A stretch of 64,000 nt of DNA. Origin: Escherichia coli. Its GTDB lineage: Bacteria; Pseudomonadota; Gammaproteobacteria; Enterobacterales; Enterobacteriaceae. Every line of letters starts with the position of its first letter. Position 1 is the first letter of the stretch. The stretch lies in NCBI RefSeq assembly GCF_003019035.1, contig NZ_CP027447.1. One strand, 5' to 3'. A program made the position numbers. Shown here piece after piece: positions 49,901-52,900 of this stretch.

Positions 49901-52900
49901 ATCCCCATATTGCCGAGCAGCAGCTGGATCATCGCCATCGTACGGATGTTTTGCGCACCAACGGAGTGTTGCGTCCAGCCGAGGGCATACAGGAACGAGG
50001 CAGTTTTATCATGAGCACTGGTTTCTGCGATGTATTCGCAGACTTTCAGGAACGCGTCTTTCGGCGTGCCACAGATGTTTTCAACCACATCTGGCGTATA
50101 ACGGGAAACGTGCTGTTTCAGCAAGTTCCACACGCAGCGCGGATGTTGCAGCGTGGTATCGCGTTTGGCGAAGCCGTTTTCGTCCAGCTCGTAGGTCCAG
50201 CTGGATTTATCGTACTTGCGTTTTTCCGCGTCGTAGCCGGTGAACAGGCCATCTTCAAAGCCGTAATCCTCACGCACGATCAGGCTGGCGTTGGTATAGG
50301 CTTCGGTGTATTCGCGGTTGAATTTTTCATTGTTCAGCAGGTACAGCAATACGCCTGACAGGAAAGCAATGTCAGTCCCGGAACGAATAGGGGCATAGTA
50401 GTCAGCCACCGCCGCCGTACGTGTAAAGCGAGGATCGATCACAATCAGCTTCGCGCCGTTGTGAATTTTGGCTTCCATCGCCCAGCGGAACCCGACCGGG
50501 TGAGCTTCAGCGGCGTTACCGCCCATCACCACGACGAGGTTGGCATTCTTGATGTCGACCCAGTGGTTGGTCATCGCACCGCGACCAAATGTTGGAGCAA
50601 GACTTGCTACCGTTGGTCCGTGTCAGACACGCGCCTGGTTGTCGACCGCGAGCATACCCAGCGCGCGGGAGAATTTTTGTGTTAAATAGCCGGTTTCGTT
50701 GCTCGACGCGGAAGCACACAGCATCCCGGTGGAGAGCCAGCGGTTAACAGTCACGCCTTCGGCGTTTTGCGCAATGTAGTTCGCATCGCGGTCTTCTTTC
50801 ATCAGTTTGGCGATGCGATCAAACGCCTCTTCCCAACTGATTTGTTGCCATTTATCAGAACCTGGCGCACGGTATTCCGGAAACTTCAGGCGGCTTTCGG
50901 AGTGGATGAAATCCACCAGGCCAGCGCCTTTCGGACAAAGTGCTCCGCGGTTGACCGGGTGATCCGGGTCACCTTCGATATGGAAGATAGATGCTTTGGC
51001 GTTTTTTGCTCCGTCACCGAGGCTGTACATCAACAGCCCACAGCCTACGGAACAATAGGTGCAGGTATTACGGGTTTCGCGGGTGCGCAGCAGTTTATAC
51101 TGCCGGGTTTCCGCGAGTGCTACGCTGGGTGCAAAACCCAGTGCCGCTGCCGTGGTGCCTGCCATACCGCCAGCACAGATCTTAAAGAACTGCCTTCTGC
51201 TGACCTGCATGGATTGCTCCTTGTTTCGACATTGTCACGTCCCATTTACATTCGCTTGCTGCGTGTGCAGGGAGTGGGAGTTATTTTTCTTTGCGGAAGG
51301 GGCCGCAAAGGTCCAGAATTGGCTCAATTTCCCTCCATCCAGGAAGGGTTTGTAACAGAATACCATAATGTTGGTGTGTGTGTTCTTATCTGGTTAAGAG
51401 AAAGTGAAAAAAACACAGCAAAAAGAAATCGAAAATGTGACAAGTGTCACAGGTGTTCGTCAAATTGAGTTATGGCGGCGTGATGATTTACAACACCCAC
51501 GGTTAGATGAGGTGGCGGAAGAGGTTCCCGTTGCGCTGGTCTACAACGGCATTTCGCATGTAGTGATGATGGCGTCACCCAAAGACCTTGAGTACTTTGC
51601 GCTCGGTTTTTCGCTTTCCGAGGGGATTATCGAAAGTCCGCGCGATATCTTCGGTATGGATGTCGTTCCTTCCTGTAATGGTCTGGAAGTGCAAATTGAG
51701 CTTTCCAGCCGCCGCTTTATGGGGTTGAAGGAGCGTCGCCGGGCACTGGCGGGACGTACGGGATGTGGCGTGTGCGGCGTGGAGCAACTTAATGACATCG
51801 GAAAACCGGTGCAGCCGCTACCGTTCACCCAGACGTTTGATCTCAACAAACTGGATGATGCATTACGTCATCTCAATGATTTTCAGCCAGTGGGGCAACT
51901 GACCGGTTGTACTCACGCCGCCGCCTGGATGTTGCCATCTGGCGAACTGGTTGGCGGGCATGAAGACGTGGGTCGCCATGTGGCGCTGGACAAACTGTTA
52001 GGCCGCCGGTCACAAGAAGGGGAAAGCTGGCAGCAAGGTGCGGTGCTGGTTTCCAGCCGTGCCAGTTATGAAATGGTGCAAAAGTCAGCGATGTGCGGCG
52101 TAGAGATTTTGTTTGCGGTGTCTGCCGCGACCACGCTTGCTGTAGAAGTGGCTGAGCGCTGTAATCTGACACTGGTAGGTTTTTGTAAACCGGGTCGGGC
52201 AACGGTTTATACCCATCCGCAGCGTTTGATTCATAATTAAAGAAATACCGCAATTCTGATTCTGGATTGCGGTTTTATTTTTCTATTAAATAATCCTCAA
52301 TATATTATTCAGCATTCAAATAATAATTTCACCACAAGAAATTATCTCGTTAACTCCGGGTTATATCGATATACTCCAGTCGCATTAATCCTTTAAGAAT
52401 TAATCATTATTTATATAAGACATTTTGTTTTAATCATCGCGTCAATAAATAAATGTTTCCGATGAGTGAATGAAATAACAAACCTTGCACCGGTTGTAAA
52501 AACAGCGATGTATTTTCAATAGTAGGTGATGGATTATGAGTATTGAAAAATGAGTACATTACAGTTACCTGGTAGTTCATATTCTACAGAAGTTAATTTA
52601 AACGGCTTAATTGAGGTGCTCAGTAAGCATCTTTACTCCACTCCCGTGGTTGCCGTGCGCGAGCTGGTGCAGAACGGCCATGATGCGATCGTTCGCCGCA
52701 GGATTGAGCAGCCCGATGCACCAAAGGATAACGCGATTCGTGTGGTGGCAGACGTGGCGAAGTCCACTATCACTATTAGCGATACTGGCGCTGGACTGAC
52801 AGAAAGTGAAATTCACGGCTTCCTGGCGACAGTAGGCGTGGGTTATACCCGAATGTTGCGCCAGCAGGATGACAACACCGGTTTAATTGGTATGTTCGGC

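Follow-up and report, generated by a model that had tools for sequence, protein, structure and literature searches.

A selenocysteine codon and its SECIS hairpin within the fdoG gene of an Escherichia coli genome

RESULTS

The fdo locus and the internal TGA codon of fdoG

The window analyzed here is a stretch of 64,000 nt from an Escherichia coli genome (RefSeq assembly GCF_003019035.1, contig NZ_CP027447.1), and the subject of this study is fdoG, the minus-strand gene for the catalytic subunit of formate dehydrogenase-O, in which an in-frame TGA separates two open reading frames (ORFs). Downstream of fdoG lie fdoH, fdoI and fdhE, and fdhD is divergent from it, which is the same gene order as that of fdoGHI-fdhE and fdhD in E. 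coli K-12 (Table 1). As argued below, the TGA is almost certainly a programmed selenocysteine (Sec) codon, codon 196 of fdoG, and the approximately 45-60 nt that follow it a bacterial Sec insertion sequence (SECIS) hairpin located inside the coding sequence.

On the minus strand, sequence reading, ORF list and translation agree on a single frame that extends from the ATG at 51210 to the TAA at 48160 and translates as 195 + 1 + 820 = 1016 codons. Its sole interruption is the TGA at 50625..50623, codon 196; there is no frameshift and no other internal stop. In the ORF list the gene appears as an ORF of 195 codons (50623..51210), terminated by this TGA, and an ORF of 804 aa (48160..50574) in the same frame (50623 - 48160 = 2463 = 3 x 821). 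The 16 sense codons of 50622..50575 are stop-free and are simply absent from the list, because the ORF finder does not open the second ORF until it meets an ATG, that of Met213 at 50574. The sequence around the TGA reads ...GCG CGT GTC TGA CAC GGA CCA ACG GTA GCA AGT CTT GCT CCA ACA TTT GGT CGC GGT GCG ATG ACC... A first-pass annotation of the window, made from the sequence alone, had described two same-frame ORFs parted by one TGA, and its arithmetic and coordinates are correct. A frameshift or further stop codons between the ORFs, which that annotation had named as fatal to its reading, were looked for by translation and none was found.

Table 1. Coordinates of fdoG, its internal elements and the neighboring fdo genes in the window
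Feature	Position	Strand	Basis
fdoG, catalytic (alpha) subunit of formate dehydrogenase-O; 1016 codons including Sec196, plus TAA	48160..51210	-	Translation, K-12 identity, TIGR01553, RefSeq, 1KQF
UGA codon 196, read as selenocysteine (Mo ligand)	50623..50625	-	1KQF alignment, TGA in 79/80 loci, mass spectrometry on K-12 protein
SECIS element, full-length match to Rfam RF01989 SECIS_3, model positions 1-59	50570..50628	-	84.3 bits
Hairpin quoted in the first-pass annotation, GGACCAACGGUAGCAAGUCUUGCUCCAACAUUUGGUC: lower stem, internal loop, apical stem-loop	50583..50619	-	Minimum free energy fold
Apical SelB-binding stem-loop, GG-U-AGCAA-GUC-UUGCU-CC	50594..50611	-	Registration against fdhF, determinants of PMC8659212
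71-nt block identical in the paralogues fdoG and fdnG; zone of lost synonymous variation, codons -1 to +20/21	50558..50628	-	Exact-run comparison
Twin-arginine translocation (Tat) signal peptide, codons 1-33, MQVSRRQFFKICAGGMAGTTAAALGFAPSVALA	51112..51210	-	Motif in sequence, listing in PMC7549933
fdoH, iron-sulfur beta subunit	47245..48147	-	TIGR01582 478.7 bits, RefSeq
fdoI, cytochrome b556 gamma subunit	46613..47248	-	NF007924 453.3 bits vs 243.6 bits for the FdnI model, RefSeq
fdhE, formate dehydrogenase accessory protein	45687..46616	-	NF002925 601.3 bits, RefSeq
fdhD, divergent sulfurtransferase needed for formate dehydrogenase maturation	51404..52240	+	TIGR00129 339.2 bits, RefSeq

The translated protein is 99.6% identical to K-12 FdoG (b3894), 77.2% to FdnG (b1474) and 33.5% to FdhF, and K-12 fdoG and fdnG each have their internal TGA at codon 196. 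The b3894 identity, the neighboring genes and the FdoI-type gamma subunit identify the locus as fdo and not fdn. Over approximately 3.4 kb spanning fdoG, the window is 100% identical to E. coli SCU-301 (NZ_CP051751.1), the sole record at an identity of at least 99%, and a full-length match to this region is present in 5425 of 5426 complete E. coli genomes. In SCU-301 RefSeq annotates one coding sequence (CDS) of 3051 nt that runs across the TGA (4191..7241 of the retrieved locus L001). The RefSeq/PGAP name for this orthologue is 'fdnG, formate dehydrogenase-N subunit alpha', beside genes labeled fdoH and fdoI; the 'fdnG' label is a naming artefact of the family model.

Family and structure comparisons treat the two halves as one protein. 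Residues 197-1016 reach 1282.5 bits with the NCBIfam model TIGR01553 (cut-off 814.2) and residues 1-195 reach 271.4 bits, and the two matches are consecutive in model coordinates (1-194 and 196-1009). With Cys put in place of Sec in the protein queries, Pfam searches found the Molybdop_Fe4S4, Molybdopterin and Molydop_binding domains (Fe4S4, molybdopterin and molybdopterin guanine dinucleotide (MGD) binding), and the PDB search aligned FdoG end to end with FdnG (1KQF, chain A), with codon 196 opposite X196, which is Sec. The [4Fe-4S] ligands Cys50, Cys53, Cys57 and Cys92 are all present in the translation, at the positions given in PMC3636253.

Compared with K-12 fdoG, the gene in the window has the same Sec codon number and operon layout, and the 60 nt from the UGA on are identical, whereas the nucleotide divergence over the gene is 2.2% and there are four amino-acid differences. 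All four (L599M, E601D, S604P and S605T) fall inside residues 599-605, at approximately 49396..49416 on the minus strand, and this clustering suggests a short patch of recombination or a surface loop that is locally variable.

A SECIS element downstream of the TGA codon

An in-frame UGA lies directly 5' of a hairpin in an otherwise open frame, as is expected of a SECIS element. The 59 nt around this codon (50628..50570) score 84.3 bits with the Rfam SECIS_3 model (RF01989), against a gathering score of 63 (E = 2.7e-19). As controls for the covariance models, K-12 fdnG gave 84.3 bits on SECIS_3 and K-12 fdhF 87.1 bits on SECIS_2.

When the U of UGA is numbered as position 1, the apical stem is formed by G15 and G16, which pair with C32 and C31, a bulged U17, five base pairs (A18-A22/U26-U30) and a GUC loop that contains G23 and U24. 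In window coordinates U17 is at 50609, G23 at 50603 and U24 at 50602. The spacer between the UGA and the apical stem, CACGGACCAAC, is 11 nt long. According to a review (PMC8659212), the SelB determinants are an apical loop set 11 nt from the UGA, the bulged U17 and G23/U24 of the loop. All of these are in place here, and with the SECIS_3 score they bear out the bacterial SECIS proposed in the first-pass annotation.

The hairpin quoted there was also found where it had been placed and folds as described: RNAfold gives a minimum free energy of -10.3 kcal/mol for 50619..50583, with the structure.((((((.((.(((((...))))))).....)))))). This part of the proposed folding check succeeds, but the folding z-scores relative to shuffled sequences are unremarkable (-0.39 for 61 nt, -1.9 for 37 nt and -2.4 for the apical 21 nt), and for that reason the capacity of the RNA to form a hairpin says little when taken alone. 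The SECIS of K-12 fdhF, taken as a control, is likewise unexceptional (z = -0.23). The signals that do stand above chance are the match to the covariance model, the depletion of synonymous variation and the covariation described below, and not the folding energy.

The fdhF SECIS (RF01988, SECIS_2) is the experimentally dissected reference element. The determinants of the fdoG element are in register with it: in both, the UGA is followed by CACGG, and both have the 11-nt spacer, G15 and G16, the bulged U17, and G23 and U24 in the loop. They differ in the apical stem, which has 4 bp and a 4-nt loop (GGUC) in fdhF and 5 bp and a 3-nt loop (GUC) in fdoG, and in the stem sequence (UGCA/UGCA in fdhF, AGCAA/UUGCU in fdoG). 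The window sequence scores only 28.1 bits on SECIS_2, and besides the low protein identity given above, FdhF has its Sec at position 140.

Conservation and covariation of the element

For comparative analysis, a protein-guided scan with one genome per species yielded 80 Enterobacterales loci. TGA is kept at the Sec codon in 79 of them, and there is hardly any variation over the next 45 nt. Since the stem does not change among Enterobacterales, constraint on the RNA was sought through synonymous-site entropy and distant homologues. Synonymous codon entropy is approximately zero (about 0.03 bits) from codon -1 to codon +20, versus a gene median of 1.09 bits, and the window of codons +1..+15 with its immediate neighbors has the lowest synonymous entropy of 315 windows.

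The sole locus without the TGA is that of Citrobacter sp. wls619 (NZ_SZXJ01000026.1; approximately position 817 of locus L054). It has lost 56 nt by deletion between two GGTCG microhomologies, and with them the Sec codon and the entire SECIS, so that the reading frame is shifted; the locus is either a true pseudogene or an error in a draft assembly.

For covariation, 12 plasmid or chromid homologues were fetched from alpha-, beta- and gammaproteobacteria, which gave nine distinct UGA-containing sequences. Positions U1 G2 A3, G15 G16 U17 and G23 U24 are invariant in all nine. Pairing in the apical helix holds for 98.4% of cells, and three of the seven pairs have two-sided changes (18-30, GC/AU; 19-29, GC/UG/CG; 21-27, CG/AU), with the compensatory changes coming from the alpha- and betaproteobacterial homologues. 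In slid controls, in which the partner was moved by 1 to 3 columns, pairing dropped to 29-51%. The lower helix is weaker, with 81.5% of cells paired and no two-sided changes.

Two homologues have a Cys codon in place of the UGA, namely one on E. coli plasmid p1RM9088 (TGT) and one from Azospirillum (TGC). Both keep most of the peptide (HGPTVAALAPTFGRG and HGPTVSALASTFGRG), and both lack the GGU...GU signature formed by G15G16U17 and G23U24. Although only two in number, these sequences form a natural control that ties the RNA signature to the UGA.

As a separate observation, additional formate dehydrogenase genes of the FdnG type occur on some conjugative plasmids of E. coli. The p1RM9088 copy (298..348 of locus L097) is approximately 65% identical, with its Cys codon and without the SECIS signature, and plasmid pECTOK-001_1 (locus L091) has a Sec-type copy that is 81% identical, with a SECIS identical to the chromosomal one.

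A 71-nt block common to fdoG and fdnG

The longest exact run shared by K-12 fdoG and fdnG is 71 nt, and the next longest is 22 nt; overall nucleotide identity of the two genes is 76%. The 71-nt run opens at the codon preceding the UGA. At its other end, the frozen block extends approximately 25 nt past the 3' end of the hairpin quoted in the first-pass annotation, and approximately 12 nt beyond where the Rfam SECIS match ends. Relative to fdnG (b1474; 1KQF), fdoG has the same 71-nt block, the same Sec196, the same Rfam score and a similar Tat-type N-terminus. The two nevertheless are paralogues with 77.2% protein identity, and fdnG has its own locus, fdnGHI beside yddG, and is nitrate-inducible according to the PDB entry name.

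Selenocysteine decoding machinery

In SCU-301, the tRNA-Sec gene (selC) is located at 72024..72118, and selA and selB at 160372..163604. Among 5426 complete E. coli genomes, selAB is present in 5425, selC in 5424 and selD in 5425. The first-pass annotation had pointed to selABCD elsewhere in the genome as a check; selA, selB and selC were found in SCU-301 itself, but selD at the species level only. Within the window there are no sel genes and no tRNA-Sec, and no tRNA of any kind was found there.

Experimental data exist for the K-12 lineage. Zorn et al. (2013; PMC3636253) detected the UGA-specified Sec196 by mass spectrometry in both FdoG and FdnG and never saw Cys at position 196; according to the same paper, translation ends at UGA196 in the absence of Sec-tRNA(Sec). 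Sec is the residue through which all three E. coli formate dehydrogenases ligate the bis-MGD cofactor (PMC6239281).

The N-terminal Tat signal

The first-pass annotation had also assigned a Tat signal to FdoG on the basis of SRRQFFK. This motif, the counterpart here of the Tat consensus S/T-R-R-x-F-L-K, is present at residues 4-10 (S4-R-R-Q-F-F-K10), followed by a hydrophobic stretch and an A31-L-A33 cleavage motif, and the peptide listed as the FdoG Tat signal in PMC7549933, MQVSRRQFFKICAGGMAGTTAAALGFAPSVALA, is identical to residues 1-33 of the translation. Profile support was not obtained: with the full protein and with the 41-residue N-terminus as queries, both Tat profiles scored below threshold (Pfam PF10518, 8.8 vs 22.7 bits; TIGR01409, 10.2 vs 16.7 bits). 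Both models are very short, and the sub-threshold scores mean that the profiles lend no support; they do not count against the motif. It is the motif, together with the published listing, that points to a Tat signal at the N-terminus.

Other features of the window

In the fdoG 5' leader (51181..51379, minus strand), the Rfam model RF02778, 'FdoG-1 5' UTR thermometer', scored below threshold (32 bits, where the gathering score is 50). Good alignment is confined to the Shine-Dalgarno region, the start codon and approximately the first 10 codons, where a UGAC...GUCA stem would enclose the ribosome-binding site.

Directly downstream of fdhE, and convergent with the fdo operon, are genes for a CopG/RHH antitoxin (44980..45276, plus strand) and a VapC PIN-domain toxin (45270..45650, plus strand). 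On the other side of the locus, two genes at 52550..56693 (plus strand) lie between fdhD and yiiG (DUF3829, 56888..57943). They are absent at that position in K-12, where yiiG directly follows fdhD. One encodes a 611-aa GHKL/HSP90-like ATPase (Pfam HATPase_c_3, 1.6e-9; HSP90, 3e-8), and the other a 768-aa TPR-containing protein that is 'hypothetical' in RefSeq; a PADLOC scan of the two genes gave only a weak TmtA-like match, to the ATPase gene (5.7e-6). The pair looks like a putative strain-variable accessory cassette.

DISCUSSION

The reading that best accounts for the fdoG locus is that its internal TGA is a programmed Sec codon followed by a SECIS hairpin, and this is a reading in which we have very high confidence. 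It is the reading of the first-pass annotation, which had taken the split of fdoG for Sec recoding rather than for a pseudogene, and it is backed by the single CDS in RefSeq, the conservation of the TGA and the SECIS_3 match. Two other explanations can be considered: (i) that fdoG is a pseudogene, divided by a nonsense mutation into fragments of 195 aa and 804 or 820 aa; and (ii) that the UGA serves chiefly as a genuine stop, or that near-cognate tRNAs (Cys or Trp) decode it independently of any hairpin, with the conserved nucleotides reflecting codon bias or fdoG/fdnG conversion rather than a SECIS.

A pseudogene would agree with the mechanical ORF list, which does give two ORFs, and a related locus, that of Citrobacter sp. 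wls619, is truly disrupted at this place by its 56-nt deletion. However, the TGA of the window occupies the same codon in K-12 fdoG, in K-12 fdnG and in 79 of 80 species, and falls on the catalytic Sec of 1KQF. Non-synonymous codon differences from K-12 are also very few on both sides of the TGA, with nine synonymous and no non-synonymous changes upstream and 54 and four, respectively, downstream. In addition, a high-scoring SECIS follows the TGA, and RefSeq has one CDS. The pseudogene explanation is already refuted by conservation, and we give it practically no chance of being correct. Termination or unassisted read-through deserves slightly more attention and is still highly improbable. It is true that translation stops at UGA196 if Sec-tRNA(Sec) is lacking (PMC3636253), that the block shared by fdoG and fdnG could in principle stem from gene conversion, and that the folding energy is unremarkable. 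Read-through by tRNA-Cys is opposed by the mass spectrometry data, in which Cys was never found at residue 196 (PMC3636253). With regard to codon bias or conversion as the source of the conserved nucleotides, the frozen block starts at the codon right before the UGA, holds in 79 species and is more extreme than any other of the 315 windows; moreover, distant homologues preserve the structure by compensatory changes, and the G15G16U17/G23U24 signature is gone from the Cys-codon homologues, which yet keep the peptide.

There are several points that weigh against the interpretation of the TGA as a Sec codon with a SECIS. In folding energy, the hairpin has no significant advantage over shuffled sequence. 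In the Rfam register, the enterobacterial lower stem is imperfect, with non-standard pairs at 5-45 and 9-41, and RNAfold favors a lower-stem register shifted by one in the enterobacterial sequence. The 80 Enterobacterales loci show no variation in the stem from which covariation could be judged, and the covariation that was observed comes from only nine distant sequences, which are themselves also coding-constrained. With respect to decoding, selD was not located in SCU-301 specifically, although it is in 5425 of 5426 E. coli genomes, and the experimental evidence for Sec196 is from the K-12-lineage protein and not from this strain, although the fdoG SECIS RNA is identical in K-12.

Established knowledge of the E. 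coli sel system and the papers cited above suggest how the codon would be decoded; SelB binding, the actual insertion of Sec and Tat export are steps that we infer or take from the literature. SelA and SelD would convert Ser-tRNA(Sec), the selC product, to Sec-tRNA(Sec). SelB, a specialized elongation factor, would bind GTP and Sec-tRNA(Sec), and its C-terminal domain would bind the apical stem-loop of the SECIS, with contacts to the bulged U17 and to G23/U24 of the loop, set 11 nt after the UGA. The tethered complex would bring Sec-tRNA(Sec) to the A site at the UGA, in competition with release factor 2, and the ribosome would then unwind the hairpin and translate it as HGPTVASLAPTFGRG. The predicted product is one polypeptide of 1016 residues, in which Sec196 would ligate the Mo of the bis-MGD cofactor. 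After cofactor loading, which would involve FdhD and FdhE, the protein would be exported together with FdoH by the Tat pathway, through the N-terminal twin-arginine peptide of FdoG, and the exported formate dehydrogenase-O would work with FdoH and FdoI.

The extent of the frozen block is a separate question, in that a canonical SECIS of 40 nt is not a full explanation for 71 nt. The 3' extension of the freeze may be due to codon bias, to gene conversion between the paralogues or to an extended RNA constraint. We consider it unlikely that the surplus reflects an additional RNA function, or recurrent fdoG/fdnG gene conversion, rather than codon bias at four degenerate codons. If there were additional RNA functions, they could include an extended helix in which the UGA is embedded, a tuning of the competition with release factor 2, or an effect on the release of SelB.

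Finally, we note that Sec196 of fdoG and its SECIS are already known as a textbook feature of E. coli that has been verified by experiment, and are found in Rfam, in RefSeq and, through the paralogue FdnG, in the PDB; nothing in this analysis alters existing knowledge of Sec recoding. A small methodological point is that the SECIS is revealed by the collapse of synonymous variation and by the contrast between UGA and Cys-codon homologues, and not by folding energy. The example is of value mainly to annotation, as a warning that naive ORF calling cuts a selenoprotein gene in two and that the resulting fragments are not to be taken for a pseudogene.

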